Shown here one piece after another: positions 1 through 21,127 of a stretch of 23,315 nt of DNA. Below the pieces are notes generated by a model. That model ran no database searches and was not told where the DNA came from. It saw nothing but the letters and a program-made list of their open reading frames with translations. The first letter of the stretch is position 1. Every line of letters starts with the position of its first letter. The translations under genes were made by a program, and so were the position numbers. The stretch comes from Actinomycetota bacterium. GTDB lineage: Bacteria; Actinomycetota; Actinomycetes; Streptosporangiales; Streptosporangiaceae. The DNA lies in assembly GCA_027306495.1 (NCBI GenBank), contig DAHUZQ010000235.1:1-23315 (forward strand). Direction: 5' to 3'.

Positions 1-39
1 TCGGTGCCCCCTGGAGCGGCGCATCAGGCCCGGGGCCGC

Positions 40-113
40 GCGGGTGTAGCTCAATGGCTAGAGTCCCAGCCTTCCAAGCTGGTTATGCGGGTTCGATTCC
101 CGTCACCCGCTCC
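40..113 (+). tRNA. tRNA-Gly, anticodon UCC (TCC)
   Basis: Cloverleaf read directly from the sequence. Acceptor stem gcgggtg pairs with cacccgc. D-arm is GCTCAATGG..GAGT. Anticodon stem-loop is ccagc-cTTCCaa-gctgg, giving anticodon TCC. T-arm is gcggg-TTCGATT-cccgt. Discriminator is T, followed by an encoded CC. Length about 74 nt. Confidence 0.85.
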
Positions 114-211
114 GTCCGCAGGAGGCTAGCGGGGCGAGACCGCGAACGCCCGCCGTCTGGCCGAAGTAGCTGGTGTAGCCGTCGGCGACCACGCAAACCC
201 AAGCACGCCAA

Positions 212-227
212 GCGCCGGCTTCGGCGC
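212..227. other. GC-rich hairpin GCGCCG-GCTT-CGGCGC about 100 nt 3' of the tRNA; possible transcript-end structure
   Basis: Perfect 6-bp stem with a 4-nt loop seen in the sequence. No U-tract follows, so it is not a canonical intrinsic terminator. Confidence 0.3.
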
Positions 228-562
228 CTCCCCCAACAGGGGGCCGGGATCCCGGCGCGCAAAGCGGAGATCTCGATGGCTGCCGCCCACCGTCGTTATG
301 CTCGACGTCACGAACGACTGGTCCGGGCCCGCGCGGTCGACCTGGCCGACGCGGTCGACCGGGCCGCGGTCAGCCCCGCAGTTCCGCTGCTCCTCGCCGG
401 GTGGCCGCACCCCAGCTTCGGATCACTCGTCAGCGAACTGCCCCGACAGCCGCTGCGGAGCCACGTTCCACGAGAAAGTCCCTCCACAGACCCGTGTTTG
501 GGCACTAGCTTTCCGTATGGTGGCCAGCGGCCCAGCGCACGGCGGAAACCGGAGCCCTTGAC

Positions 563-796
563 ATGAGCCCCGCAATCACGGCGGTGATCATTGCCGTCAT
601 CGCGCTTGTCGCACAACTGATCTTCCAGCGACACCTGACGAGCAAATACGACTATCAATGCGATAACTGCGGTCAGAGGTTCAACCTCACCCCGCTCACG
701 GCGTCAGTCGCTCCACACCGCTTCGGCGGCAGCAAGTATGTCAGATGTCCTCATTGTGGTGTGCGCTCATGGGTTTCGCCGGTGCCCAAGCAATAG
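563..796 (+). CDS. small (77 aa) membrane-anchored zinc-ribbon protein, hypothetical
   Basis: ATG start with stop TAG at 794-796. Hydrophobic N-terminal helix (AITAVIIAVIALVAQLIF) is followed by CDNCG...CPHCG, a double CxxC zinc ribbon. Local GC (about 57%) and third-position GC are below the window average, so the coding call is moderate. Confidence 0.45.
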   Translation: MSPAITAVIIAVIALVAQLIFQRHLTSKYDYQCDNCGQRFNLTPLTASVAPHRFGGSKYVRCPHCGVRSWVSPVPKQ

Positions 797-894
797 GGGA
801 CTGCCGTGCACACGCGGGCCCTGCCGACGCGACTGCTGCGCTCCCCCACAACCCCTCTCCCGTCGGCGGCAACCGGGGGTTCAGACGCACAGGC

Positions 895-1683
895 TCATGA
901 GCACACCAGGACGCCCGTAGCCGTGCGCACCCGCAGGAGTCCGTCGGCTCCGAACCTCAGGCCCCGGACAACTTCGGCGACCACCGACTCATAATCCGCC
1001 ACCTGCTCGGCGATGACCATGCTGCGCAGGTAGTCCTCGACTGGCCGCCCGTCCGGCAGGAGCAACTCCCCCACGAATTCGTGACGGGCCACCGAACTGA
1101 AAACCTGCCGCGCCAGCGCCTCGCCCGCGTCCAGACGCAGCGACTCATGCACCGCCAGGCCCTCACCACGGCCGCGCAGGACCGCCGACAGCGCGCTGAG
1201 CAATTCCAGCAGGTGACCCTCACCGTTGAACATGATCAGCACCCGGCCGCCGAGACGGGTGACACGGCGCAGTTCCCAGACCGCACAGACGGGTTGGGCC
1301 ACGTGGTAGAGCATGTGCATCGCCAGGGCCACATCGCAGCAAGCGTCCCGCAGTGGCAGGGACGCCGCGTCCCCGACCACCAACGACGCGGCCGGGAGGC
1401 GCCGGCGCACCGCGCTGAGCATGCCCGGTGACAAGTCGACGCCCAGCACCCGCCGCACCCGCCCGGGCCCCAGAAACTCGGCCAGGTACTTGCCGTTCCC
1501 GCAGCCAATGTCGGCAACAGTCTCGTCGCCGCACGGCCCGAGCAGCGACACGATCTCCCGGGCGAGATCGACCACCGGCCGCTGATAGGCGTAGATGGAC
1601 TGACGGGCCGCGAGGTTGTCCTCGGTCCGGTACTGGGAATCCAGCGACGCGCGGCCTGACCATGCCTGCGCATCGTCCGCCAC
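895..1683 (-). CDS. class I SAM-dependent methyltransferase
   Basis: Glycine-rich SAM-binding motif I (VADIGCGNGKYL) with an acidic motif II (LGVDLS) about 20 aa downstream. The GTG start overlaps the TAG stop of the upstream FHA-PrsW gene (CTAGTG), and AGGAG lies 9 nt upstream. Stop is TGA at 895-897. Confidence 0.8.
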   Translation of the reverse strand: MADDAQAWSGRASLDSQYRTEDNLAARQSIYAYQRPVVDLAREIVSLLGPCGDETVADIGCGNGKYLAEFLGPGRVRRVLGVDLSPGMLSAVRRRLPAASLVVGDAASLPLRDACCDVALAMHMLYHVAQPVCAVWELRRVTRLGGRVLIMFNGEGHLLELLSALSAVLRGRGEGLAVHESLRLDAGEALARQVFSSVARHEFVGELLLPDGRPVEDYLRSMVIAEQVADYESVVAEVVRGLRFGADGLLRVRTATGVLVCS

Positions 1684-3122
1684 TAGGCGATCTCCTCGTG
1701 CCCGGCCGAATGCCCCGGCGGCCCCGCATGCTGCGGCGCGTGCCCTGTCCCTGCTGCGTGCCCTGTCCCTGCTGCGTGCCCCGGCCCCGCGGCGTGCCCC
1801 GGCGGGCCAGCGACTCGCGGCGCGTGCGCCTGTCCAGGCGAGGCCAGCCCCGGCAGATCCATCACCATCGACTCACCCCGGAAGATCGGCATGTACCGGA
1901 CGTCCCTCTCGATCACCGCCGCCGTGGCGGTGTACCCGAGGAACAAGAACAGCGAGACCGCCTGGATCACGATCCACGGCCACAGATCCCGCCCGAACGC
2001 ACCACTCAGGCTCCAGTCGTTGAGGCCGTGCAGCACCGAGGGCAGCAGCAGGCCGAGCATCCACAACGTCACACGCTGACGATGGTAATTCGCGCCCAGC
2101 CCAATGAAGAATCCCGCGATACCGGCCCACAGGGCATGCTGCAGGCCGTCGAGGAATACGCGTTCCACAAATTCCGGGATGCCGAAAGCCGAGCCGTGCG
2201 CTATCTGCGCGACGTCCATGGGCACATAGATCGTGGACGCCTCATAGACGCCGAACATGAGGCCCGACAGCGTCGCCAGGAACGTCCACATCCGCACGTC
2301 TAGTTTCTGCTTGCGTGCGGTGAGCAACACGATGGCGGCGACCAGCAGTGGCAGGGCCTTCGTGAATTCCTCGGCAACCCCGACCCCGAAGATCCAGCCC
2401 GCCAGGTTGGCACTGCCGGCCCGGGGCTCCAGCGCATTCTCCCAGGGCACGGTCAGCACGGGGATGAGCACGACTTCCGCGAGCAGCAGGAAGCCGGCGA
2501 TAGCCGCCTCGACCTTGCCGAACCGGCCGGGCGGGCGGATCAGGTACCAGAACACCAGTGCCCACAACGGCGCCACGTACAGGCAGTACACCCAGCCCAG
2601 CGTCCGCAGGCTGCTCGTGTGCTGAAGCGTGGCCAGCATGATCAGCGGAGCCATCGCATAAGCGGCCACCAGCAGGCGGTACCACGAGCGCAGCGCAGGG
2701 TCCCTGGCCCAGGTGCTGATCGGGATCAAGATCTTCAGGGCGCTGACGACGTTCTGCTGCTGGGGGGGCCGAGACGCTGGACCGCCGGCGGCGGCGCCCG
2801 GCGAGAACGGCTCCGGCGTGGTCGCTGGCTCGAACCGGACGACGGGCCCGTCGGCGGCCGCCAACCGCACCTCCAGTGGCCCGGTCAGCGTCACCGTGGT
2901 CACCCGGTGGGCACCTGCGTAGGTCCCGCCGCTGCCGACGCTGTCCAGCACCCAGCCGTTCGCGCGCCAGGTCAGGCGCAGGTGCTCCCGCGACACCCGC
3001 GGATCCGCTACCCGCAGCGAACTTCCCGCCCCGCGGCCCACCACCGCGCCCGATCCCGGCGGCACGACGATCCGCTGGTCGCCGTGCCGGATGACAAGGT
3101 CGTTCATCATGTCCTGCCCCAC
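1683..3122 (-). CDS. FHA domain fused to a PrsW-family (M82-like) polytopic intramembrane protease, with a C-terminal His/Gly/Ala-rich repeat tail
   Basis: N-terminal FHA signature (VVGRG...SREHLRL...WVLDSVGS.GGTYAG.HRV) and a Pro-rich linker. Multiple TM helices carry PrsW motifs: AEEFTKAL (EExxK), the FLDGLQHALWAG region, and LHGLND (HxxxN/D). The tail is GHAAGPGHAAGTGHAAGTGHA. The GTG start is at 3122; an alternative ATG is at 3110, preceded by a GGGGCAGGA RBS-like run. Confidence 0.75.
   Translation of the reverse strand: MGQDMMNDLVIRHGDQRIVVPPGSGAVVGRGAGSSLRVADPRVSREHLRLTWRANGWVLDSVGSGGTYAGAHRVTTVTLTGPLEVRLAAADGPVVRFEPATTPEPFSPGAAAGGPASRPPQQQNVVSALKILIPISTWARDPALRSWYRLLVAAYAMAPLIMLATLQHTSSLRTLGWVYCLYVAPLWALVFWYLIRPPGRFGKVEAAIAGFLLLAEVVLIPVLTVPWENALEPRAGSANLAGWIFGVGVAEEFTKALPLLVAAIVLLTARKQKLDVRMWTFLATLSGLMFGVYEASTIYVPMDVAQIAHGSAFGIPEFVERVFLDGLQHALWAGIAGFFIGLGANYHRQRVTLWMLGLLLPSVLHGLNDWSLSGAFGRDLWPWIVIQAVSLFLFLGYTATAAVIERDVRYMPIFRGESMVMDLPGLASPGQAHAPRVAGPPGHAAGPGHAAGTGHAAGTGHAPQHAGPPGHSAGHEEIA
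1738..1791. repeat. 18-bp tandem repeat (gcgtgccctgtccctgct), 2 perfect plus 1-2 degenerate copies, encoding GHAAGT repeats of the FHA-PrsW C-terminus
   Basis: Direct repeat units at 1738-1755 and 1756-1773, followed by diverged copies. In frame in the minus-strand CDS. Confidence 0.7.
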
Positions 3123-3241
3123 CGGCCGCGCCCCGCACCGACCGCCGCGCTCCCCACGGCTCCGCCACTCCTGGAATGGCGGTGGACGGCGTTATCGCGG
3201 CTATTGTGATTCATTTCGGAACGAATGATCGGGTGCCCTCC

Positions 3242-4186
3242 CTATTCCCTGGCCGCCCCGGGCCGGTGTATTCCGAGCGGTCGCGGCGGGGACGGTGCCA
3301 CCTCGAGGGCCTCATCCCGCAGCAGCAGGGCAACAGCGGTGTCATCGCCGCTGCCCGCCGCCGACGCGCACGCCGCGGCCCAGGCCGGCAACTGCGCGCG
3401 GACCCAGCCGATGCCCTGGTCACGGGCGAACCGCACCAGATCGGACCCCACCGGCTGCTGCCAGGGATCGGTTACCAGCGCGTTCCCGAATCCGTCGGTC
3501 GCCAGCAGGACGGCAGCGACGTCCTCGCGGGCCAGATCGAGCACGGCACACCGGAACGATCGCACCGCGTCCGGTTGGCACAGGCTGGTCGTCCGGCGCC
3601 CATCCAGCCGTTCATCCCCGGGAACGGGCGTCGAAGCCCTGCCCTGCCCGTCAACCACGACGATGTCACCATCGCCGATCTGGCAGAGTCCCAGCCAGGA
3701 GCCCACCACGGCCGCCAGCAGCAGGGTGGTCCCATACGCCACCGAACCGCTCTCACCGGGCCGCAACCACCCACGTTCGTCCTGATCGAGGGGGTGCTCG
3801 AGCAGGTCATCCTCGACAGCGAACCGCCAGGCGGCGATGATGGCCGGGATCACGGCACCGCCCAGGACATGCTCCACCTCGCCGGTGGCCCCGCCGGCCG
3901 CGAGGTCGGCGGACCGTTCGATCAGCGCCGATCCGGCGACGCGGACGGCGAACTGCGCGCCCGTGGCGCTGCGGCCGTGCCGTGGGTGCCCGTGCCCGTC
4001 AGCCACCGCCAGGGCCAGGAGGCCACCGGGGTGCCCCGGATCGCCGAAGCAGGCCACCACGTCCTGGATGGGCCGCCCGGCCGCTTCGTGAGCGGCGCCG
4101 CGGGCGGTGGCTGTCAGGGTCTGCCACCGCAGGGGAAGGGCACGGGGAGGTGCCCCGGAGTCAGACAATCGGGTCCTTCTCAGCAT
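3242..4186 (-). CDS. PP2C-family Ser/Thr protein phosphatase
   Basis: PP2C motifs are present: LAVADGHGH (metal-binding DGxGG-like), GTTLLLAAV, GDGDIVVV, LLATDGF and DDTAVALL. Stop is TAG at 3242-3244. The start is uncertain: ATG at 4186, or TTG at 4168 preceded by a GAGAAGGA RBS. Confidence 0.8.
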   Translation of the reverse strand: MLRRTRLSDSGAPPRALPLRWQTLTATARGAAHEAAGRPIQDVVACFGDPGHPGGLLALAVADGHGHPRHGRSATGAQFAVRVAGSALIERSADLAAGGATGEVEHVLGGAVIPAIIAAWRFAVEDDLLEHPLDQDERGWLRPGESGSVAYGTTLLLAAVVGSWLGLCQIGDGDIVVVDGQGRASTPVPGDERLDGRRTTSLCQPDAVRSFRCAVLDLAREDVAAVLLATDGFGNALVTDPWQQPVGSDLVRFARDQGIGWVRAQLPAWAAACASAAGSGDDTAVALLLRDEALEVAPSPPRPLGIHRPGAARE

Positions 4187-4400
4187 CGCCCGGCGCAGCC
4201 GCCGCCGGCTGGATCAGCCTGCTCATGATCGCCTCCCGGTCCGCACCAGTCTCCGACAGGCGGGACACCGTAGGCGAGGCCGTCACCAGCGGGCTGGTTG
4301 TCCGCTCCACGGTATCCGCCACCAGCGCCGGAACCGGCCGGTCGCCGGCGAACCTGGCCAGATATTGCAGGTTCTGGCCCCGGAAGCTGTCGGGGGACAC
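4161..4400 (-). CDS. candidate small ORF (79 aa, GTG start) immediately upstream of, and overlapping, the PP2C start; hypothetical
   Basis: Third-position GC is about 85%, typical of coding DNA in this window. Its TGA overlaps the candidate TTG start of PP2C (TTGTCTGA). It has no recognisable domain and no hydrophobic core. Confidence 0.2.
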   Translation of the reverse strand: MSPDSFRGQNLQYLARFAGDRPVPALVADTVERTTSPLVTASPTVSRLSETGADREAIMSRLIQPAAAAPGDAEKDPIV

Positions 4401-4463
4401 CGGCCGCGGGCCCGCCCATCACGGGTCAGCCATCCCGCCCGCCGCCGGCCCAGCATAACCGCG

Positions 4464-5669
4464 CTAGCCTGCGGCGCGATCCACGACGCGCCCTTTCCAG
4501 GCACCACCCCGCCCGCTGTGATGGCGGCGGGCGGAATCGACTGTCATGGCCGCATACAGGACGGCGACCAGCGGCAGCGTGGCCGCACGCAGCGGTGAGA
4601 GCCGGTACATCCGCAACACGGGAACATAGGTCGCGGTCATGAGCAGAGCGGCGGCCCAGCCAGCGGCAGCCGTCACTGCCGCGGCCACTGTCCCGTTCGC
4701 CAGCCAGGCGGCCAGGCCACCCACCGCGGCCACCGGCGGCACCAGGTAGATCCATGCCAGCCCGACCACCACCAGAGCCAGCAGCATCGGTGAATACCGG
4801 AGCTGGGTGTAGGCACTGCGGGCGATCATCTCCCACAGCGACCGCAGGGTCGGATACGGCCGCCGGCTCTCAAGATCCACCGAGAACCCGAGCCAGCACG
4901 GCGACCGCGCCGGAGAACGCTTGAGAAGCCGCGCGAGAGCGACATCATCGATCCGCGCACCGGAGATCATCTGCAGCCCGCCCGCAGCGGCCAGCGCGGA
5001 CCGGCGCACCAGCATGCAGCCGCCCGCCGCCGCGGCCGTGCGGCTGCGGGCGCGGCTCGCGCGCCGGAATGGATAGAGCTGGCCGAAAAAGTACACAAAG
5101 GCCGGCACGATCAACCGCTCCCAGCCGCTGTCGGCCCGCAGCAACACCATCTGCGACACCAGATCGAACGGGCCGCCCTCGGCCGCCCGTACCAGCGACC
5201 GCAGGGCGTCCGGCGACCAGCTGATGTCGGCGTCGGTGAACAGAAGGTAGTCGCTGCCGCCGGCCGCCGTGACGCCCTGCGCCATCGCCCAGACCTTGCC
5301 CGCCCAGCCGGCAGGAGGAGGACAACCTGCGATGACACGCAGCCGGGAGCCAGGGCCGGCCAGCGACGAAGCCACTTGTGCCGTCCCATCGGTGCTGGCG
5401 TCGTCGACCAGCACGACCCGCAGCCTGCCCGGATAGTCCTGCCTCAGCAGCGTCGGCAAGGTCTGCGGCAAGATCGCGGCCTCGTCGCGGGCAGGCACGA
5501 CCACGCTCACGCACGGCCAGGTCCCCGGTCCCGGACCTGGCCGTCGCGCGTCATCGCCTGCTGGGCAATCTGGCAGGCGATGATCCGCCCGCCAGTAGCC
5601 GCCGTGCCCCAGCAGCAGGTATCCCCAGGCGAGGGCGGCGAGCACCGTGACCGCAACGGCGACGATCAC
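4464..5669 (-). CDS. family-2 glycosyltransferase with N- and C-terminal TM segments; HpnB-like (hopanoid-associated glycosyltransferase) by architecture and context
   Basis: GT-A motifs are present: VSVVVPARDEA, LVDDASTDGT and a DAD-like TDADI. It has an N-terminal TM helix and 3-4 C-terminal TM helices. The GTG start has GAGG 6 nt upstream, only 8 bp after the flotillin stop. Membership of the HpnB family cannot be proven without an HMM search. Confidence 0.7.
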   Translation of the reverse strand: MIVAVAVTVLAALAWGYLLLGHGGYWRADHRLPDCPAGDDARRPGPGPGTWPCVSVVVPARDEAAILPQTLPTLLRQDYPGRLRVVLVDDASTDGTAQVASSLAGPGSRLRVIAGCPPPAGWAGKVWAMAQGVTAAGGSDYLLFTDADISWSPDALRSLVRAAEGGPFDLVSQMVLLRADSGWERLIVPAFVYFFGQLYPFRRASRARSRTAAAAGGCMLVRRSALAAAGGLQMISGARIDDVALARLLKRSPARSPCWLGFSVDLESRRPYPTLRSLWEMIARSAYTQLRYSPMLLALVVVGLAWIYLVPPVAAVGGLAAWLANGTVAAAVTAAAGWAAALLMTATYVPVLRMYRLSPLRAATLPLVAVLYAAMTVDSARRHHSGRGGAWKGRVVDRAAG

Positions 5670-5677
5670 GTGCTACC

Positions 5678-6856
5678 TCAGCCGGCCCCCTGGCCATCCG
5701 CCTGCCCATCGGGCTGACCGTCCGCCCCGCCGGCTGCGGGGAGCCCGGCGGACTGGCTGCCGGGCGCGCGGTCCAGTTCGCCGTTCACGCTCTTCCTCAC
5801 CGTGCTGAGGATCGACAAGCCCTGGCCAACGAGACTCGCGGCGATCTCACTCAGCCCATCGGCGCCGTTCAGCACGCTGACGTTGGCTCCTCCGAGGCCA
5901 GCGGCGGCTTCCTTGACGATCTGGGGAAGCTGGTTGATGAGCATCTGGTCGAGCGCGATCCGGTTGTTGGAGGCAGCCGCCTGCGCCTGGATCGTCACCC
6001 GCTCCGCCTCGGCTCTGGCCAGCACACGCACGCGTTCGGCTTCGGCTTCGGCCGGCTTGACCACCTCGGCCACGAGTTGGCGCTCGCGCAGTTCCGCCTG
6101 CTGACGGGCGAGTTCGGCCTGTGCCGCGATGACCTTGAGTTGCGCCTGCGCCTGGGAGAGCGGCCCGGCCTGGGCCGCCTCGGCCTGGGCCTTGTCGATC
6201 TGGGCCTTGTACTCGGCCTGCACGACCGCGGTCTGCCGGGCGTACTCGGCCTGCTTGCGCTGCGATTCCTGCTCGGCCTCGGCCGCCGCCTGGTTGGCCT
6301 GAGCCTGGGCGATCTGAGCCTGGCGGCGGATCGCCGCGTTGTGTGGCGCGGCCATCGAGTCGATATAGCCCGCGTTCATATCGTCGATCGACTGGATTTG
6401 CAGGGAGTCCACGGTCAGGCCGATCTTGACCATCTCCACCTTGGATCCGTCGAGGACCTCCGTCGCCAGTTTCTGGCGTTCGGTGACGATTTCCTCGACC
6501 GTCATGGATCCCACGATCGACCGCAGGTGGCCCGCGAAGATCCGCCCGGTCAGAGTTGACATCTGATCCTGATCGGACAGGAAACGCTGGCCCGCATTGA
6601 CGATGCTTTCCTCGTCGTTGCCAACCTTGAAAGCGATGACCGCTCGCACGTTGAGTGCAATACCCTGCCGGGTCACACAGGTCTCGGCGACTTCCGCCTC
6701 CTGCATTGACAAGGTCAGGTAACGAGCCTTGCGGAAGAAGGGGGCGACGAATGCGCCATGGCCGACCACCACCCGGAACGGCGCTCCACTGTGCCAGCGC
6801 CTGCCGCCGGCGACCAGCATGGCCTCGTCAGGCGCTGGGACACGGTATCCGAACAT
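5678..6856 (-). CDS. flotillin (SPFH/band-7 domain plus Ala/Glu/Gln-rich coiled-coil flotillin domain), FloT homologue lacking an N-terminal membrane hairpin
   Basis: GHLRSIVGSMTVEEI is identical to the FloT core motif. The N-terminal PDEAMLVAGG aligns to FloT GPDEALIVTG. A long EA/AQ-rich coiled-coil segment follows. A strong RBS (GGAACAGGAGCAGG) precedes the ATG. An in-frame upstream stop prevents any N-terminal extension. Confidence 0.85.
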   Translation of the reverse strand: MFGYRVPAPDEAMLVAGGRRWHSGAPFRVVVGHGAFVAPFFRKARYLTLSMQEAEVAETCVTRQGIALNVRAVIAFKVGNDEESIVNAGQRFLSDQDQMSTLTGRIFAGHLRSIVGSMTVEEIVTERQKLATEVLDGSKVEMVKIGLTVDSLQIQSIDDMNAGYIDSMAAPHNAAIRRQAQIAQAQANQAAAEAEQESQRKQAEYARQTAVVQAEYKAQIDKAQAEAAQAGPLSQAQAQLKVIAAQAELARQQAELRERQLVAEVVKPAEAEAERVRVLARAEAERVTIQAQAAASNNRIALDQMLINQLPQIVKEAAAGLGGANVSVLNGADGLSEIAASLVGQGLSILSTVRKSVNGELDRAPGSQSAGLPAAGGADGQPDGQADGQGAG

Positions 6857-6901: not shown

Positions 6902-7144
6902 TCAATAGTCCTCGTCCTGGAATGGGCGGAGTGGGTCATTCCATTCGCTGACATCAACCGTCCGTGTCCCCCGATCATTGATGACCAGGACAGAAGTACC
7001 CCGTTTCAGCGGCTGGGCCGACCAGGCAATAAGCGCTTCAGAGCCACCGCGGTAGGAGATCAGCACCTCTCCGGGACCGGACTGCCCCCGTGTCGCGACG
7101 ATGATCCGGCCGATACAGCCGACCACGGAACTGTCCTGAGCCAC
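6902..7144 (-). CDS. short NfeD-like OB-fold (beta-barrel) protein, the usual operon partner of flotillin
   Basis: 80 aa with a Gly/Val pattern (GEVLISYRGG...GTSVLVIN..GTRTVDV) typical of the NfeD C-terminal domain. GTG start with GAGGAG 8 nt upstream. An in-frame stop 4 codons upstream bounds the N-terminus. It sits directly 5' of the flotillin gene. Confidence 0.5.
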   Translation of the reverse strand: MAQDSSVVGCIGRIIVATRGQSGPGEVLISYRGGSEALIAWSAQPLKRGTSVLVINDRGTRTVDVSEWNDPLRPFQDEDY

Positions 7145-7457: not shown

Positions 7458-8486
7458 CTATTCCGGGCGGCCGCACGGTCCCGGCCACACCAGGCCGGTG
7501 GCCGCGAGCACTGCTTCGGCGTCAGGCATGGCAGCCTGGGCACCACGGACGGTGACCGCCGTCGCCGCCACCGCGCACGCGGCGCGGACGGCCCGTTCCG
7601 GCTCAATCCCAGCCCCCACGGCCACAGCGAGCGCCCCGCAGAATGCGTCGCCTGCCCCGACCGTGTCAACCGCCCTCACCGGGAACGCTGGCACCACCAC
7701 CGTCGGCACCGGGGCGGTGGGACGACCGCCGCGGGCCCGGGCTGCCTTCGGGGACTGAGCCGTGCCCGGCGCGGACTGAGCCGTGCCCGGCGCGGATGCC
7801 AGGACCGCGCCCATAGCACCGAGCGTGATCACCACATGCCCGGGCCCCCACCCGGCCAGCGTCGCCGCGGCCTGTTCGGCCTGGCTCAGCCCGTGTACGC
7901 CCGTCCCAAGCAAGGACGCCGCTTCGCGGGCGTTGACCACCAGCCACCGCGGCCGCGCGGCCAGCAGGTCCCGCCCGCCCGCCGGGACGGGCGCGAGGTT
8001 GAGCACGGCCGGGATTTCGTGCCGGTGCGCCGCCACGAGTGCCGCGGCGAGTGCGGCCACCCCGATCTCGGCGCTGAGCAGGATCACCTCGCACGGGTGA
8101 ACCAGTGCCGCGTTCACGTCCTGTTCGCCAAGCAGCGAATTGGCGCCTGGCGCCACCGTGATCGCGTTCTCCCCCGCTTCATCCACGCTGATCAGGGCGA
8201 GCCCGGTGACCGCGCCCTCAGCCACCCGCAGCCCACTGGTGTCCACCCCCCGCGATCGCAGGCCGCTGACCAGCGTGGCCGCGAACTCATCGGCACCCAC
8301 GCACCCGTGCAGGCGCACCCGCGCGCCCAGTCGGGCAGCCGCGACGGCCTGGTTCGCACCCTTGCCGCCGGGGCCGATCACGGCTCCCGAGCCCAGGACC
8401 GTCTCTCCGGGGCTGGGCAACCGCGGCACCCTCACGCAGATGTCGGTATTCAGGCTGCCGATCACGGTGATGGTGGGACCCGGCAT
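7458..8486 (-). CDS. rbsK: ribokinase (PfkB family carbohydrate kinase) with a low-complexity insertion
   Basis: N-terminal ITVIGSLNTD...PxxGET matches the ribokinase pattern. The GGKGANQAVAAARLG signature-1 and DTVGAGDAF signature-2 are present. ATG start with GAGGAGG 7 nt upstream. Confidence 0.75.
   Translation of the reverse strand: MPGPTITVIGSLNTDICVRVPRLPSPGETVLGSGAVIGPGGKGANQAVAAARLGARVRLHGCVGADEFAATLVSGLRSRGVDTSGLRVAEGAVTGLALISVDEAGENAITVAPGANSLLGEQDVNAALVHPCEVILLSAEIGVAALAAALVAAHRHEIPAVLNLAPVPAGGRDLLAARPRWLVVNAREAASLLGTGVHGLSQAEQAAATLAGWGPGHVVITLGAMGAVLASAPGTAQSAPGTAQSPKAARARGGRPTAPVPTVVVPAFPVRAVDTVGAGDAFCGALAVAVGAGIEPERAVRAACAVAATAVTVRGAQAAMPDAEAVLAATGLVWPGPCGRPE
7752..7793. repeat. 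perfect 21-bp tandem duplication (ggactgagccgtgcccggcgc x2) inside the ribokinase CDS, encoding SAPGTAQ-SAPGTAQ
   Basis: Two identical adjacent 21-bp units read from the sequence. It is in frame, and lies within an insertion of about 25 aa relative to canonical ribokinases, just before the DTVGAGD motif. Confidence 0.9.
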
Positions 8487-8601: not shown

Positions 8602-10632
8602 ATGATCGTTGCGATGGTTAGCCACACATCCGTCCGGACCCTGATCCTGGGTGTAACGGCCTCGGGGCGGCTAGTGGAGCATGACCGCACCGCCCCCGAA
8701 GTCATCGCCGCCCCGGACGGGCCGCTGCTTGGTGCGCAGTTCAGCGATGTGATCGCCGAACCGGCGCTGCCGGGGTCTGCGCTCGCGGGTGTGCTGGAGG
8801 CGATCTCAGCCGGACGGGAGGCTACCGCCGTCCTCGCCGTACGGACCCGCCGCGGCCACCCGGTCGAGGCCGTCGTGTCCGTGCAGCCCATGCGCAGCAG
8901 TGAATCCAAGGTCGCGGCGCTGATCATGCTACGGGTCCCACCACCGAGCGAAGAGCAGTTCATGGACCCGGCGGTCATCCGTTACGCACTGCTCAGCGAC
9001 ACCTTCCGGCATATCGGGACCACTTTGGACCTCGACCAGATGGCCCGGGGGCTGGTCAACATCCTGGTCCCGCATTTCTGCAACGCCGCCGGCCTGCTGG
9101 TGCTGGAAAGCCTCGCCGCGGCCGACGAGCCCACGCCGCGGGCAGAGGGCGACCATCTGCTGCGCCGGCTCGCGTTCGCCGGCGACCCCGGCGACGCGGC
9201 GTGGGAGGCGATGTTCCCGCTCGGCGAAACCGTGCGGCACGCACCCGGCAGCCCGCAGGCACTCTGCCTGCAAACAGGTAAGCCCATGCGGGAGTCGGAT
9301 GTCGGCATCGGCCACTCCTTCACACGCTCCCCGATGCACGGGCCGGCGACGCATCTGCTCGATCGTGCGTCCATGCTGGTGCTTCCCCTGATATCCGGCG
9401 ACAGCGTGCTGGGCGAGATCGTGTGCCTGCGCCGCTCGGGCCTGCGCGCCTTCGACTCCTATGACACAGAGATCGGCATGGAGTTCGCGAGCCGGGCCGC
9501 CATCTTCACCGAGAACGCGCGGCGCTACAACCGGGAACGGACCACGGCGATCATGTTGCAGCGCAGCCTGCTGCCGACCGGCCTGACGGTTCCCTCCTCC
9601 GTCCAGGTTGCCCACCGCTATCTGCCCGGCAGCCATCTCGTCGAGGTCGGCGGCGATTGGTATGAGTCGCTCACGCTGCCCGGGGCGCGGGCGGCCCTGG
9701 TGGTCGGGGATGTGGCAGGCCACGGGGTGGGTGCCGCCGTGACCATGGGCCGGCTGCGGACCGCCATCCAGACCCTCGCCATGCTGGAACTCCCGCCGTC
9801 GGAGTCGCTGCAGCAGCTCGACGAACTCATGCATGTGATCGGCGTCCGCGAACCGCACTTCGCCACCTGCGTCTACGCGACCTACGACGCGGTGAACGGC
9901 ACCTGCGAGATCGCGTCGGCGGGCCACCTCCCGCCCCTGCTCGTCAGCCCCGATGGGGCCGCCCGCTACCTTGACCTGCCCGCGGCACCACCGCTGGGCG
10001 TGGGTGAAGGCCCCATCCGCAGCACGGCCCTCACCGTAGAGGACGGGAGCCTGCTGATCCTCTACACCGACGGCCTGGTGGAGAGCCGCACCGCCGACAT
10101 CGATGTGGGCCTGGAACGGCTGCGGGCGGCGTTCGCCGCCGGTGTGGCGGACCTGACGGTAGAGGAACTCTGCACGGCCGCCCTGGCCAGTGCCTATGCC
10201 GAGGAGCAGCGTGACGATATCGCCGTGCTGATCGCGCGGTTGCGCCGGATCGACCCTGGGCAGCACGTCTCCTGGGATCTGCCGGGGGAGGTCACAACCG
10301 CCGGCCGGGCGCGGGCGCTGGTCGGCGAGCCGCTGGCGCGGTGGGACCTGGCGGCCATGCTGCCGCTCACCCAGTTGCTCGTATCCGAACTGGTGACCAA
10401 CGCGATCCGCTACACCAGCGGCCCGGTGATGGTGCGTCTCATCAACGAGGGCTCGCTGGTGTGCGAGGTGTACGACAACTCACCGGCATTGCCCAGGCTC
10501 CGGCATGCGGCCCGCGACGATGAATGCGGCCGCGGGCTGGAGATCGTCAGCCAGATGTCGGACCGGTGGGGCGCGCGGCGCACTCCTTCGGGCAAAGTCG
10601 TCTGGTGCGAGCAGAAGCTCCCCAATCGCTGA
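8602..10632 (+). CDS. multidomain signalling protein: N-terminal sensor region + GAF + PP2C/SpoIIE phosphatase + C-terminal RsbW/SpoIIAB-like HATPase_c kinase domain
   Basis: GAF-like region spans about aa 130-300. SpoIIE/PP2C motifs are present: ERTTAIMLQRSLLP, GGDWYE, GDVAGHGVGAA and LLILYTDGLVE. The C-terminal part carries ELVTNAIRY...GRGLEIV, the N-box/G-box of anti-sigma-factor-type kinases. ATG at 8602; an alternative start is the ATG at 8614. Confidence 0.8.
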   Translation: MIVAMVSHTSVRTLILGVTASGRLVEHDRTAPEVIAAPDGPLLGAQFSDVIAEPALPGSALAGVLEAISAGREATAVLAVRTRRGHPVEAVVSVQPMRSSESKVAALIMLRVPPPSEEQFMDPAVIRYALLSDTFRHIGTTLDLDQMARGLVNILVPHFCNAAGLLVLESLAAADEPTPRAEGDHLLRRLAFAGDPGDAAWEAMFPLGETVRHAPGSPQALCLQTGKPMRESDVGIGHSFTRSPMHGPATHLLDRASMLVLPLISGDSVLGEIVCLRRSGLRAFDSYDTEIGMEFASRAAIFTENARRYNRERTTAIMLQRSLLPTGLTVPSSVQVAHRYLPGSHLVEVGGDWYESLTLPGARAALVVGDVAGHGVGAAVTMGRLRTAIQTLAMLELPPSESLQQLDELMHVIGVREPHFATCVYATYDAVNGTCEIASAGHLPPLLVSPDGAARYLDLPAAPPLGVGEGPIRSTALTVEDGSLLILYTDGLVESRTADIDVGLERLRAAFAAGVADLTVEELCTAALASAYAEEQRDDIAVLIARLRRIDPGQHVSWDLPGEVTTAGRARALVGEPLARWDLAAMLPLTQLLVSELVTNAIRYTSGPVMVRLINEGSLVCEVYDNSPALPRLRHAARDDECGRGLEIVSQMSDRWGARRTPSGKVVWCEQKLPNR

Positions 10633-10660: not shown

Positions 10661-11662
10661 TCAGCCACGCAGCGCGCGCAGTGACTGCCGCAGTGAGCCC
10701 ATGGTGGCGAGCACCGCGGACGGCTCGTAGCCGCAGTGCGCCATGCAGTTCGCGCACCGGGGGTCCCTGCCCCGGCCGTAGGCTTCCCAGTCGGTGGTCT
10801 CGATGAGCTCGGCGTACGTGCGGGCGTAGCCGTCGGCCATCAGGTAGCAGGGCCGCTGCCAGCCGAGCAGCGAGTAGGACGGGATACCCCAGGCGGTGCA
10901 GCCGAAGTCGGTCTTGCCCTCCAGGAAGTCCAGGAACAGCGGTGAGTGGTTCAGCCGCCAGCGCCGCCGGTTACCGCCTGCGAACGCCTTGCGGAACAGT
11001 TCCCGGGTCTCACCGACACCCAGGAAGTGCTCCTGGTCGGGCGCCTTCTCGTAGGCATAGGCCGGGGAGATCTGCATCTGGTCGATGCCCAGGTCGTCGT
11101 TGAGGTAGCTCAGCACGTCGATCACGGTCTGCGCAGTGTCGGTGTTGAAGAAGGTGGTGTTGGTGTTGACCTTGAACCCGCGCGCCTTGAGTTGGCGCAC
11201 CGCTGCCACAGCTTCGTCGAAGACGCCCTCCTTGCAGACTGATTCGTCGTGGCGGTCCCGCAGGCCGTCGATGTGCACGACCCACGCGAAGTAGGGCGAC
11301 GGGGCGAACTTGTCGATCTTCTTGCTGACGAGCAGCGCGTTGGTGCACAGGAACACGAACTTCTTGCGGGCGATGAGCCCGCGCACGATCTGGTCTATCT
11401 GCGGGTGCATCAGCGGCTCGCCGCCGGCGATCGACACCATCGGCGCCCCGCACTCCTCGATCGCCGCGATCGCCTGCTCGACCGGCATCCGTTGCTTCAG
11501 GATGTCGTGCGGATGGGCGATCTTGCCGCACCCTGCGCACTTCAGGTTGCACGCGAACAGCGGCTCCAGTTCCACCAGCAGCGGGAACTTCTGCCTTCCG
11601 GCCAGCTTCTGGCGCAGCAGATATGACCCGATCGCGAGGCTCTGGCGCAGTGGCATGCTCAT
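10661..11662 (-). CDS. hpnH: adenosylhopane synthase HpnH (radical SAM, hopanoid side-chain formation)
   Basis: CNLKCAGC radical-SAM cluster motif (CxxxCxxC) near the N-terminus. C-terminal Cys cluster (CANCMAHCGYEP) typical of HpnH. Located in the hopanoid operon. Confidence 0.9.
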   Translation of the reverse strand: MSMPLRQSLAIGSYLLRQKLAGRQKFPLLVELEPLFACNLKCAGCGKIAHPHDILKQRMPVEQAIAAIEECGAPMVSIAGGEPLMHPQIDQIVRGLIARKKFVFLCTNALLVSKKIDKFAPSPYFAWVVHIDGLRDRHDESVCKEGVFDEAVAAVRQLKARGFKVNTNTTFFNTDTAQTVIDVLSYLNDDLGIDQMQISPAYAYEKAPDQEHFLGVGETRELFRKAFAGGNRRRWRLNHSPLFLDFLEGKTDFGCTAWGIPSYSLLGWQRPCYLMADGYARTYAELIETTDWEAYGRGRDPRCANCMAHCGYEPSAVLATMGSLRQSLRALRG

Positions 11663-13209
11663 CAGGACCTGACCTCCCTCGGCAGGCTGAATCGGATGTT
11701 CTCAGTGGTGATCACACGCTCGCTGACCCGCACCGGGCCGAGCCCGCCGAGCGCGTCGATGATCTCTGCGACCACCGAAGGCGGGGCGGACGCCCCAGCC
11801 GTCAGCCCCACCGTCCTCACCCCGGCCAGCCAGCTCAGCGCGATGTCGGCGGGCCCGTCGATCAGGTGCGCCCGAACCCCCGTGCGCTCGGCGGTCTCCA
11901 CCAGCCGGACCGAATTGGAGGAGTTCGCCGACCCGGCCACCAGCACCAGGTCCGAGGCGGCCGCGACCGCCCGGACCGCGTGCTGACGGTTGGTCGTCGC
12001 GTAGCAGATGTCGTCGCTGCCCGGCGCGCGGGCAGCCGGGAAGCGCTCCAGCAGCGCCCGGGCGACCTCAGCCGCCTCGTCCGTGGACAGGGTCGTCTGC
12101 ATGAGGTAGGCGACCTTGCCCTCGTCGGCGGGGCGCAGCCGGGCCACATCCTCGACGGTTTCCACCAGCGCCATCGCCGCGGGCGCCTCGCCGAGTGTCC
12201 CCTCGACCTCTTCGTGCCCGGCGTGACCGATCAGGGCCACCAGGTAGCCTTCGGCGGCGAACCGCCGGGCCTCGGCATGGACCTTGGACACTAGCGGGCA
12301 GGTGGCGTCCACCGCCGTAAGCCCGCGCCCGGCGGCCTCCTCCCGCACCGCCGGTGAAACCCCGTGTGCGGAGAACACCACCCGGGCCCCGTCCGGCACC
12401 TGCGACAGTTCGTCGACGAATACCGCGCCCCGCCGCTCCAGGCCGGCCACCACGTGGGTGTTGTGCACGATCTGCTTGCGCACGTAGACCGGTGGCCCAT
12501 GCTGGGCAAGCACGCGTTCCACGATCTCGACAGCACGCTCCACCCCCGCGCAGAACGACCTCGGGCCGGCCAGCAGCACTTCCCGCGGGCCGGCGGCGGC
12601 GGCCCACCTGGCGAGCACCGGCCCGGCCGCGCGCAGCGAGCGCAGTGCCGCGGTGCCGCCGCGGATCAGCGCCGGGGAGAGCAGCGGCTGGCCCGCCGTA
12701 TCCGATACCGCCCGGATCACCGCCAGCGGCCGGTCACCCGCGGCCGCCGCCAGGTCGAACGATTCGCGGTCGGCCACCAGCGCTCCCCAGCCAGCCAGCC
12801 GTTCCCGCTGATGGCCGCGCACAAGGCGGTCCACGGTCACCACCCGCCCCGCCCGGGCGCGCAGGCCCGCCCGCCGTAGCTCGCCGGCCAGCAGGGGAGC
12901 GGCCGGGCACGCGATCATGGCACGGCCGTCGGTCACCTCGTTCCCTACCACACTGTCGCCGGGGACCAGGTCCGCGGCAAGCCCTCCGCTGGTCCCCGCG
13001 ACCGCCAGCATCCGGAAATCCTCGCGGGTGAGCCGTGCCGCCCGGCTGCGCGCCCGGGCCCGGCCATAGCCGGTGACCAGCACCCGCCCGCCGTTCCCGA
13101 GTCCACCCCGGACAGCCCGCGCCTCCGGCCACAGCGGGGCACAGACCACCAGTGCCGGACCGGGTGGCCCAGGATCGGCCGGCGCCGCCCGCTGGGGTGG
13201 CCCGGTCAT
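11662..13209 (-). CDS. ispH: fusion protein: N-terminal HpnG-like purine nucleosidase (PNP/MTA-nucleosidase fold) + C-terminal IspH/LytB (4-hydroxy-3-methylbut-2-enyl diphosphate reductase)
   Basis: N-terminal part has [14 protein letters not shown] (catalytic Glu region) and [11 protein letters not shown] (SDxA motif), as in MTA/adenosylhopane nucleosidases. From about aa 205 ([23 protein letters not shown]) to the end is a full-length IspH, with the conserved Cys at AVDATCPLV and a third Cys near ICYATTNRQ. The ATG overlaps the shc stop (ATGA). Confidence 0.8.
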
Positions 13210-20032: not shown

Positions 20033-21127
20033 TCAGTGCCGCCAGATGATCGCCAGCGCGCAGTCGTCCGTGCTCGGGCCCGACTGCATGGACTTCACCA
20101 GGTCGTCCGCTGCCCGGAAGCCGGAATTGGCCAGCCGGTCGGCCTCCCCGAGCAACCGGTCGGTGCCGTAGTCGATGTCCCGGCCGGGCAACTCCACCAG
20201 CCCATCGGTGTAGATCATGAGGGCGTCACCCGGTCGCAGGGTGCCCCGCTCCGGCGTCAAGCGCAGATCCTCCACGACACCGAGGACAATGCCGTGCGCC
20301 CGGGTCATCCGCCAGGTGGCGCTGGCCCCGTCGAAATGCGCCGCAGGCGGATGCCCCGCACAGCCCACCAGATAGTCGCCACTTGCCAGATCGATGGTGA
20401 CGTGGATGGCGGTGACAAAGCCGTCCGATCCGCCGCCCCGCAGCAGGTAGGCGTTGCACGCCGGCAGGAACTCGTGCCGCGCCACCGTGCCGAGCAGGCC
20501 GCCGAACGCCCCAGAGAGCAGCAGGGCCCGTGTCCCGGCGGTGACCCCCTTGCCCGCCACGTCCACCAGGGCGATTTCCAGCACCTTCTCGTCGCAGGTG
20601 GAGACCAGAAAGTCGCCACCGAACGAGGAACCGCCAGCAGCCTTGAGCACCGAAACCGACCCCCAGCCCTCCGGGAGTTCCGGCAGGGTGCCCTGAGCAC
20701 GGATCCGGTCCCGCAACTCGATCAGCATGTGCTCGCCGCGCAAGCCCTTCATGCCGAGTTTTTTGCGGGTGCGGGCGAGGACGTCGGCGAGCAGTGCCGT
20801 CACCACAATGGTCGCGATGAGCCCGGGGCCGGCCCGGCCGCGCAGGAAGTCGTACAGCAGGCCAGCCGCGACGATCACATACAGCGCCCGCAGTGCCCGG
20901 GGCGTCAGCAGCAGGCCACCCGCCAGCACCGGCAGGATCAGCAGGCCGGGGGAGAACCATGCCCTCGACACGTGGACGGCGCCGACGCTGATCGCCACGG
21001 TCGCGAGCGCGAGGCCGAGCGCCAGCCGCCGGTTCCGGGTGATGACCTGCCGCCTCGCCAGGCCACCGGCATAGGCCGCGCCCGCACGTGCGGCGCGCAC
21101 CAGCCGGAACCGGGTGGGGGAAACCAT
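20033..21127 (-). CDS. membrane-anchored SpoIIE/PP2C-family phosphatase (RsbU-like), with 4-5 N-terminal TM helices
   Basis: Hydrophobic N-terminal third (LALGLALATVAISVGAV, LLILPVLAGGLLL, LYVIVAAGLLY, LIATIVVTALLADVL). PP2C/SpoIIE motifs are FGGDFL, DVAGKGV, LMIYTDGLVE and DDCALAII. Confidence 0.8.
   Translation of the reverse strand: MVSPTRFRLVRAARAGAAYAGGLARRQVITRNRRLALGLALATVAISVGAVHVSRAWFSPGLLILPVLAGGLLLTPRALRALYVIVAAGLLYDFLRGRAGPGLIATIVVTALLADVLARTRKKLGMKGLRGEHMLIELRDRIRAQGTLPELPEGWGSVSVLKAAGGSSFGGDFLVSTCDEKVLEIALVDVAGKGVTAGTRALLLSGAFGGLLGTVARHEFLPACNAYLLRGGGSDGFVTAIHVTIDLASGDYLVGCAGHPPAAHFDGASATWRMTRAHGIVLGVVEDLRLTPERGTLRPGDALMIYTDGLVELPGRDIDYGTDRLLGEADRLANSGFRAADDLVKSMQSGPSTDDCALAIIWRH

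Follow-up and report, generated by a model that had tools for sequence, protein, structure and literature searches.

A PP2C_2 phosphatase and an FHA-PrsW membrane protease as the probable remainder of a TerY-P-like operon in an actinomycete

We analyzed a 23-kb stretch of 71% GC actinomycete DNA (all 23,315 nucleotides of contig DAHUZQ010000235.1, which we call the window). Three adjacent genes on its minus strand encode a protein phosphatase of the PP2C_2 family, a fusion of an FHA domain to a PrsW-type membrane protease (FHA-PrsW), and a methyltransferase. Our preferred explanation, which we give a probability of about 0.55, is that the PP2C_2 and FHA-PrsW genes are two survivors of an ancestral operon of four genes, which also encoded a vWA protein and a Ser/Thr kinase with a zinc ribbon. 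In relatives with the intact operon, these proteins would form a switch of the TerY-P type whose output is a PrsW-type protease. In the window, the remaining pair would still be functional, and the methyltransferase would have no role in it. TerY-P triads consist of a TerY-like vWA protein, a PP2C phosphatase, and a Ser/Thr kinase with a C-terminal zinc ribbon (PMC11090510, PMC4978471).

A prediction made earlier from the sequence of the window (the original prediction) had placed the three genes as we find them, and their Pfam matches are above the cut-offs (Table 1). It had read them as a module in which phosphorylation controls proteolysis. A link between PrsW and phospho-signaling holds at the level of the family, but the module in the window is incomplete: it has no kinase and a truncated vWA gene.

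Results

Intact operons in related genomes

The FHA-plus-PrsW architecture is found in over 200 clusters of proteins at 90% identity. Nearly all of these are from metagenome-assembled genomes of uncultured soil bacteria, either Streptosporangiaceae/Trebonia-like or Acidimicrobiia. When clustered at 50%, the family is of modest size, with 44 representatives below 1e-30.

We called the genes in 80 related genomic loci, clustered the neighbors, and built profiles from them; 76 of the loci were usable for counting neighbors, which we did within six genes. About one third of the 76 loci contain a gene for PP2C_2, the kinase, the vWA protein, a Pro-rich bitopic membrane protein, and/or a protease with the arrangement FHA-FHA-TM-trypsin (TM, transmembrane segment), as identified by Pfam and by profiles from the PDB. 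PP2C_2 is present in 17 loci, a protein kinase (Pkinase) with a CxxC...CxxC ribbon in 16, and a vWA protein of ~238 amino acids in 14. The recurrent gene order is vWA, PP2C_2, kinase, FHA-PrsW. The nearest relatives in the databases, P0002 (63% identity) and P0003 (71% identity), are in loci with exactly this order, as given by the independent gene calls from JGI, and in the P0002 locus the PP2C/kinase and kinase/FHA-PrsW junctions each overlap by 4 nucleotides (nt). We found the same order in L004, L014, L019, L052, and L058, and, judging by cluster membership, in L055. In about 8 other loci (L034, L036, L040, L051, L054, L070, L079, and L080), a PP2C gene is directly upstream of FHA-PrsW and there is no kinase.

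In a neighbor-joining tree, the protein from the window is beside the one from L011, which has both PP2C and the kinase. Together they lie within a clade in which linkage to the triad is common and several losses of it have occurred. These observations suggest that the coupled operon of vWA, PP2C_2, kinase, and FHA-PrsW is the ancestral state in this clade.

Some of the related loci have additional genes of the same kinds. Cluster C25 (in L008, L012, L015, L017, L018, L020, and L021) is a second FHA-tethered protease encoded near vWA/kinase genes and FHA-PrsW, which makes two FHA-linked proteases per neighborhood. It has two FHA domains, one TM segment, and a trypsin-like serine protease domain (Trypsin_2, 70.5 bits). 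The C25 loci also encode a Pro-rich bitopic membrane protein of ~430-500 amino acids that has no Pfam match. In L051 and L070, the PP2C_2/FHA-PrsW pair is just downstream of a gene for a small FHA protein, which is followed by two MerR-like genes. This arrangement presumably resembles the garA-Rv1828 region of mycobacteria.

The copy in the window is reduced

Upstream of PP2C_2, we found what remains of a TerY-like vWA gene (Table 1). The original prediction had counted the region up to 4400 with the PP2C gene, but 4187-4400 belongs to this separate open reading frame (ORF). It matches only the last 72 positions (167-238) of a 238-position profile that we built from the vWA genes of the related operons. 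The parent family is a vWA family, as shown by Pfam matches (VWA_2/VWA) and by PDB profile matches to vWA and integrin I domains. The remnant ends with the C-terminal ..D-x-I-V of the family, and its stop codon overlaps the start of PP2C, as in the intact operons. The N-terminal two thirds, which in the intact family bear the metal-ion-dependent adhesion site (MIDAS; DxSxS), are missing, and no DCSGSM motif is present. The ORF is 64 nt from the stop codon of hpnB, a gene of the adjacent hopanoid cluster.

We searched the entire window in all six frames with profiles for the vWA protein, the kinase, the Pro-rich protein, and the FHA-trypsin protease and recovered only this remnant and PP2C. We found no remnant of the kinase even with hmmsearch at maximum sensitivity in all frames, and the window has no other Ser/Thr kinase gene. 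Where the relatives encode the kinase and its zinc ribbon, the window has a short intergenic gap that is relatively AT-rich, as the original prediction stated, and that may hold the internal promoter proposed there. A strict scan for sigma-70 promoters across 600-4700 found no minus-strand promoter in either intergenic gap, which says little for an actinomycete. A scan of the same range for intrinsic terminators found none in the minus-strand gaps; its two terminator-like sites are within coding sequence, which is the level expected by chance.

Table 1. Features of the minus-strand genes and their positions in the window.
Feature	Position	Strand	Evidence and remarks
Class I methyltransferase dependent on S-adenosylmethionine, 262 amino acids	895..1683	-	Methyltransf_11, 76.1 bits; Methyltransf_25, 60.7 bits
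Whole FHA-PrsW ORF	1683..3122	-	479 amino acids from GTG 3122; 474 from ATG 3107
Tandem repeat, encoding the AG(P/T)GHA repeats of the C-terminal tail	1738..1799	-	18 nt, 3.4 copies (TRF)
Cytoplasmic tail motif after the eighth TM helix (TM8), IE(R/K)xVRx-T-P-phi-F-R-G-[DE]-S	1869..1913	-	phi = [ILVM]; Met codon in the window at 1890-1892 (codon 411)
PrsW-type protease core, eight helices, residues 120-415	1878..2765	-	PF13367, 44.6 bits vs 23.5
FHA domain, residues 8-100, with G29-R30 and S44-R45-E-H47	2823..3101	-	PF00498, 30.5 bits vs 20.7
Intergenic gap, PP2C to FHA-PrsW	3108..3241	-	Relatively AT-rich; relatives have a ~450-amino-acid Ser/Thr kinase with zinc ribbon here
PP2C_2-family Ser/Thr phosphatase, 314 amino acids, intact	3242..4186	-	PF13672, 97.5 bits vs cut-off 24
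TerY-like vWA remnant, 5'-truncated	4164..4400	-	ORF 4161-4400, 79 codons; profile match 4164-4379, E = 2e-18

The contig DAHVDI010000197 of the independent assembly GCA_027313635.1, which is 99.2% identical, has the same vWA remnant and the same junctions. We therefore rule out that the window is an assembly chimera joined at the hpnB/vWA junction. As we reconstruct it, the vWA gene lost its first ~166 codons in a rearrangement against hpnB and the kinase gene was deleted, so the copy in the window is probably a degenerate member of the FHA-PrsW family.

Where hpnB meets the vWA remnant (4408-4466), the two strains are polymorphic (compared with L081). The TAG stop of hpnB is CAG in the other assembly, which adds ~15 codons to HpnB, and the two assemblies also differ by an indel of 7 nt at 4444. 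This polymorphism fits a young junction that is under little constraint.

The phosphatase and the protease appear to be intact

The original prediction spoke of a PP2C phosphatase; the protein belongs to the PP2C_2 family, which is the kind found in TerY-P triads, rather than to the classical PP2C/SpoIIE phosphatases. The match covers positions 1-207 of the 209 in PF13672. The metal-binding motifs (ADGHG, GDGD, TDG, and GDD) are kept and are conserved across 17 members of the family. Searching the PDB with the phosphatase sequence gave no match.

For FHA-PrsW, we count residues on the 479-amino-acid ORF from GTG 3122. The true start is more likely to be ATG 3107 (MNDLV...) because the homologs, and the protein's twin in the databases (P0001), begin at MN(D/E)L. 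With that start, the gap between PP2C and FHA-PrsW is 134 nt. In an AlphaFold model (mean pLDDT, the predicted local distance difference test, of 81), the protein consists of an FHA beta-sandwich, a disordered Pro-rich linker, eight long helices, and a disordered tail.

The FHA region is modeled with a pLDDT of about 96, and its best Foldseek match is the FHA-1 domain of Rv1747 (6ccd; target-normalized TM-score 0.90, root-mean-square deviation 1.1 A, 30% identity), in keeping with the 11-strand beta-sandwich of FHA domains. The Arg and Ser that contact the phosphate and the His of SxxH are invariant or nearly so across the family. The Asn of the NG(T) turn is replaced, by Ser in the family and by Gly in the window. 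The domain had been described as canonical; it retains GR and SxxH and has lost the turn Asn, so it is nearly but not fully canonical, and we predict that it reads phosphothreonine.

The PF13367 match covers residues 220-375. As the original prediction supposed, the PrsW motifs are intact: E251-E252-F-T-K255, F290-G-V-Y-E294, H329, and H365-G-L-N368-D369 are all present, with motif residues that are invariant in an alignment of 82 sequences. They correspond, at similar spacing, to the motifs of PrsW from Bacillus subtilis (E75E76xxK79, F110xxxE114, H138, and H175xxxD/N179), in which E75/E76 and H175 are required for function (PMC12943098). The protein is thus a putative protease, which would act on a membrane substrate. 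It is not an ortholog of B. subtilis PrsW, as it scores just 22.9 bits against the PrsW equivalog model NF033739 (cut-off 225).

Hydropathy and the distribution of charged residues agree on the topology. With FHA inside the cell, the inside loops have 12 Lys or Arg residues and the outside loops have 2; therefore, the N- and C-termini, including FHA, are cytoplasmic, which the original prediction had assumed of FHA. According to the model, the catalytic residues would lie between the middle of the membrane and its outer leaflet, on the opposite side from FHA, so direct targeting would need a bitopic substrate. When we compared the whole model to the PDB with Foldseek, we obtained FHA matches only and none to a solved membrane domain of the PrsW kind.

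The C-terminal tail (residues 420-475) is longer than in the homologs and has a pLDDT below 50, which indicates disorder. Within the FHA-PrsW gene, the two strains differ mostly in or beside the tandem repeat that encodes this tail.

A conserved motif in the cytoplasmic tail

Just after TM8, the proteins of this family share a cytoplasmic motif around T-P-x-F, which is common to every clade. Among the 70 members listed, its Thr position is Thr in ~61, Ser in 3, and Ala or Asn in 6; only the protein from the window has Met. The 99%-identical twin also has Met at position 411 and does not differ from the window at all within the motif. The change from Thr to Met coincides with the loss of the operon's kinase in the window. 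Across the family, however, this residue does not track with a neighboring kinase: Thr is nearly universal, and Met is in the window alone.

Many FHA domains favor a hydrophobic residue at the third position after the phosphothreonine (pT+3), which pT-x-x-Phe would fit, so the motif is a candidate ligand for the protein's own FHA domain. GarA/OdhI and Rv1747 are precedents for such self-ligands. We can extend this to a more specific model, in which a soluble switch of vWA, Ser/Thr kinase, and PP2C in the intact relatives would gate the protease because its FHA domain binds the phosphorylated T-P-x-F tail as a latch, either in cis or between subunits. The protein in the window would then be a natural variant without the latch, in which Thr411 changed to Met as the kinase was lost. 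We consider this model speculative and rather doubtful.

The methyltransferase is probably an unrelated neighbor

The original prediction had included the methyltransferase in the operon and had described it as translationally coupled to the protease. The signals that suggested coupling are in the sequence. The junction reads cacgAGGAGatcgccTAGTGgcg; the protease's stop codon TAG (1685-1683) and the methyltransferase's start codon GTG (1683-1681) overlap by one base (TAGTG), and AGGAG is upstream of that start.

The survey of related loci, which supports the association of FHA-PrsW with PP2C and with the kinase, does not support that of the methyltransferase, which is next to FHA-PrsW in 0 of the 80 loci. 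Its homologs (about 50-55% identity) are from Streptosporangiaceae-like metagenomes and are in contexts that are unrelated and different from each other. No equivalog model in NCBIfam matches it at the cut-off. A role in hopanoid synthesis is unsupported, since the homologs are outside of hpn clusters. We conclude that the methyltransferase is a lineage-specific neighbor that lies outside of the conserved module. The simplest reading of the junction is that a rearrangement joined the 3' end of the protease gene to the ribosome-binding site that belongs to the methyltransferase, with the protease frame continuing to the first stop codon, which explains the apparent coupling. The two proteins may well be co-translated, but this pairing would be young and lineage-specific.

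Discussion

Proposed function

In the intact relatives, the cytoplasmic kinase would make a phosphothreonine mark, and the cytoplasmic FHA domain of the protease would read it. Reading the mark would recruit or release the eight-helix protease so that it cuts a membrane protein, and PP2C_2 would erase the mark. The vWA protein may be the sensor, as has been proposed for TerY-P (PMC11090510). Candidate phosphothreonine ligands are the protease's T-P-x-F tail motif, the kinase, the vWA protein, and the Pro-rich bitopic membrane protein, and the last of these is also the most obvious candidate for the substrate. In the window, PP2C and FHA-PrsW would still function, either with a kinase that is encoded elsewhere or because the protease acts constitutively or independently of phosphorylation. 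A kinase in trans is plausible because of the roughly eight other loci that have a PP2C/FHA-PrsW pair and no kinase.

Several observations weigh against this explanation. First, 50 of the 76 loci have no signaling neighbor. These include a large separate clade in which FHA-PrsW is beside AurF-like and GH1 genes, as well as another clade in which it adjoins upp/GT4/SCO1 genes. It follows that the protease can work without a switch that is encoded in its operon. Second, the TerY-P models from PADLOC do not match the PP2C from the window or the vWA protein and kinase from its relatives, so we use “TerY-P-like” for the architecture only. Third, the T-P-x-F motif is kept in close relatives that apparently lack FHA and is missing from distant FHA-PrsW proteins, so it may be structural rather than a phosphorylation site. 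Fourth, a comparison of the gap to ten intact operons (blastn with short words) found no deletion scar. The direction of change, with loss here rather than gain elsewhere, is based on the neighbor-joining tree and the truncated vWA gene, and the comparison of the two strains includes just 11 substitutions. Finally, we did not find any experimental work on an FHA-PrsW protein in the literature.

Alternative explanations

The window could hold a decaying relic, in which PP2C and FHA-PrsW lost their function after the kinase and vWA were lost and are becoming pseudogenes. Internal deletions are a known feature of TerY-P clusters (PMC4978471), and here the kinase is deleted, the vWA gene is truncated, a conserved Thr has become Met as in no other member of the family, and a polymorphic tandem repeat has expanded the tail. 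Yet both ORFs are full length and keep every catalytic and ligand-binding residue, and their GC content at third codon positions (0.83-0.87) is like that of the neighboring genes. Outside of the repeat tail, the PP2C, FHA-PrsW, and methyltransferase genes of the two strains differ by 9 synonymous versus 2 non-synonymous changes (6 and 2, respectively, in PP2C), so PP2C and FHA-PrsW appear to be under purifying selection. Also, kinase-less pairs of PP2C and FHA-PrsW recur in other lineages. Overall, we think that decay is unlikely.

Alternatively, FHA-PrsW might be a housekeeping membrane protease whose FHA domain binds other proteins constitutively, as an adaptor, whether or not they are phosphorylated, with PP2C as an incidental neighbor. 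This would account for the many loci without signaling neighbors, including the two groups described above, and for the missing Asn of the NG(T) turn throughout the family. It does not account for the near-invariance of the residues that contact phosphate or for the overlapping operon junctions with the kinase in the nearest relatives. Furthermore, PP2C_2 is nearby in 17 of 76 loci, whereas we would expect this by chance at under 1% of loci (a rough estimate that assumes a few such genes per genome). We regard this explanation as quite improbable.

The original prediction itself, in which PP2C, FHA-PrsW, and the methyltransferase are a complete and self-contained operon for the phospho-gated proteolysis of an anti-sigma-like substrate, now seems very unlikely to us. 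The three genes are adjacent and on the same strand, the domains are intact, the last junction has the overlap and AGGAG, and a kinase-less PP2C directly precedes FHA-PrsW in about 8 other loci. But the methyltransferase is not part of the neighborhood elsewhere, 134 nt separate the phosphatase from the protease, and the tail that runs into the methyltransferase's start is a disordered and polymorphic repeat. The truncated vWA gene and the missing kinase show that the arrangement is derived. Also, neither the window nor the annotated related loci have sigma or anti-sigma genes, so the proposed analogy to cleavage of the anti-sigma factor RsiW has no synteny behind it.

Lastly, it is highly improbable that the ancestral module was an anti-phage defense system of the TerY-P type: although TerY-P-like modules are reported to be stand-alone defense systems (PMC11090510) and this module is patchy and repeatedly lost, PADLOC does not identify its PP2C, vWA protein, or kinase as TerY-P, the flanking genes are housekeeping genes rather than defense islands, and the output is a membrane protease instead of a nuclease. 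Across all of its defense models, PADLOC gave no match for PP2C, FHA-PrsW, or the vWA protein, and just generic matches for the kinase and the methyltransferase.

Comparison to known systems

B. subtilis PrsW (YpdC; MEROPS M82) is in the same Pfam family (PF13367) as the protein from the window. Both are polytopic, with the four motifs at similar spacing and the motif residues in transmembrane helices. The protein from the window has roughly double the length. Its cytoplasmic FHA domain is at the N-terminus, a Pro-rich linker leads from there to the eight helices, and the cytoplasmic tail has a conserved motif. It also differs in having no genes similar to sigW/rsiW nearby.

Rv1747 from Mycobacterium tuberculosis is an ABC transporter with N-terminal FHA domains that is regulated by the adjacent kinase PknF. 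Like FHA-PrsW, it joins cytoplasmic FHA to a polytopic membrane machine with a kinase next door, but FHA-PrsW is a protease instead of a transporter, it has one FHA domain instead of two, and its kinase is soluble and has a zinc ribbon, while that of Rv1747 is a Pkn kinase anchored in the membrane. In Sulfolobus, ArnA (FHA and a zinc ribbon) and ArnB (vWA) act with the kinases ArnC/D to control transcription of the archaellum. The ArnA/ArnB structures 5a8i and 5a8j were among our structure and profile matches. This regulatory unit also combines FHA, vWA, a Ser/Thr kinase, and a phosphatase; it differs in being archaeal, in having the archaellum as its output, and in lacking a protease.

As to the TerY-P triad, relatives of the window encode all three of its components in a single operon, where the kinase is likewise followed by a zinc ribbon. 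Their output is an FHA-tethered membrane protease, not genes for DNA processing, restriction, or tellurite resistance. In the window itself, just PP2C and 72 codons of vWA remain of the triad; the part of vWA that bears MIDAS and the kinase with its zinc ribbon are absent.

The original prediction noted that a switch of this kind had not been described in experiments. This holds for FHA-PrsW fusions, but the novelty was overstated, since they were already predicted to be signaling proteins in 2012. In the passage that concerns PrsW, Zhang, de Souza, Anantharaman, Iyer & Aravind describe fusions of PrsW to FHA, PilZ, cNMP-binding, or Zn-ribbon domains as predicted “signalling peptidases” (PMC3482391). 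They include the fusion to the phosphopeptide-binding FHA domain, which is exactly the architecture of the protein from the window, and predict that cleavage responds to the signal of the fused domain. The fusion has one sentence in that passage, without operon context; here we add its operon tie to vWA, PP2C_2, and the kinase, as well as a reduced copy. A PilZ-PrsW protein, LIC_20173, is present in Leptospira (PMC12943098). As far as we checked, neither the connection of the family to a TerY-P-like triad nor the conserved motif in its tail has been described; the original TerY-P paper (Anantharaman et al. 2012) was outside of that check.

Other genes in the window

Most of the window is a hopanoid cluster, which includes two SQS_PSY genes, an amine oxidase, a polyprenyl synthase, a squalene-hopene cyclase, an IspH/nucleosidase fusion, the radical S-adenosylmethionine protein HpnH, and HpnB (4464-5669; TIGR03469, 456 bits). 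Between the hopanoid genes are a flotillin gene, a PfkB kinase, and phosphatases of the SpoIIE type. There is a tRNA-Gly at 40-113, which was the only hit when we scanned 1-5000 with Rfam.

The flotillin/SPFH gene (5678-6856) lies inside the hopanoid cluster, 8 nt upstream of hpnB and before PfkB (7458-8486). It scores 82.8 bits for Band_7 and 145 bits for the FloT model, which is under the cut-off of that model. The 80-amino-acid ORF directly before it (6902-7144) looks like an NfeD-type partner and has no Pfam match. It is suggestive that a raft scaffold is encoded in the midst of genes for sterol-like lipids.

The fusion gene (11662-13209, minus strand), which is between the squalene-hopene cyclase and HpnH, encodes 515 amino acids with a PNP_UDP_1 nucleosidase domain (HpnG-like, residues 33-174) and a full LytB/IspH domain (residues 211-487). 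It appears to unite two functions of hopanoid clusters. The two SpoIIE-type PP2C phosphatases (8602-10632, plus strand, and 20033-21127, minus strand) flank or interrupt the cluster and are unrelated to the PP2C_2 gene; one of the two is a GAF-SpoIIE-HATPase_c_2 fusion on the opposite strand. Between the tRNA-Gly and the methyltransferase are two small ORFs on the plus strand (233-559 and 556-789), which converge on the methyltransferase and mark the end of the string of minus-strand genes. One of these (77 amino acids) has a faint match to Zn_ribbon_8 in the precomputed annotation of the twin contig.

Implications

So far, PrsW has been known for a single role, as the protease that triggers a stress pathway in Bacillus. 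In this family, the same core is fused to a phosphothreonine reader, and the intact operons also encode a kinase, a phosphatase, and a putative vWA sensor. This makes it testable whether Ser/Thr phosphorylation can drive regulated proteolysis in the membrane. It would also give a TerY-P-type triad a protease as its output, as opposed to the DNA-processing outputs described so far. Because the copy in the window is reduced, the intact operons on the contigs of P0002 and P0003 are better objects for experiments, and the main use of the window's copy is as a natural deletion variant. If the tail should turn out to be a latch, then these proteins would be the first phosphorylation-gated membrane proteases of the site-1 type in bacteria.

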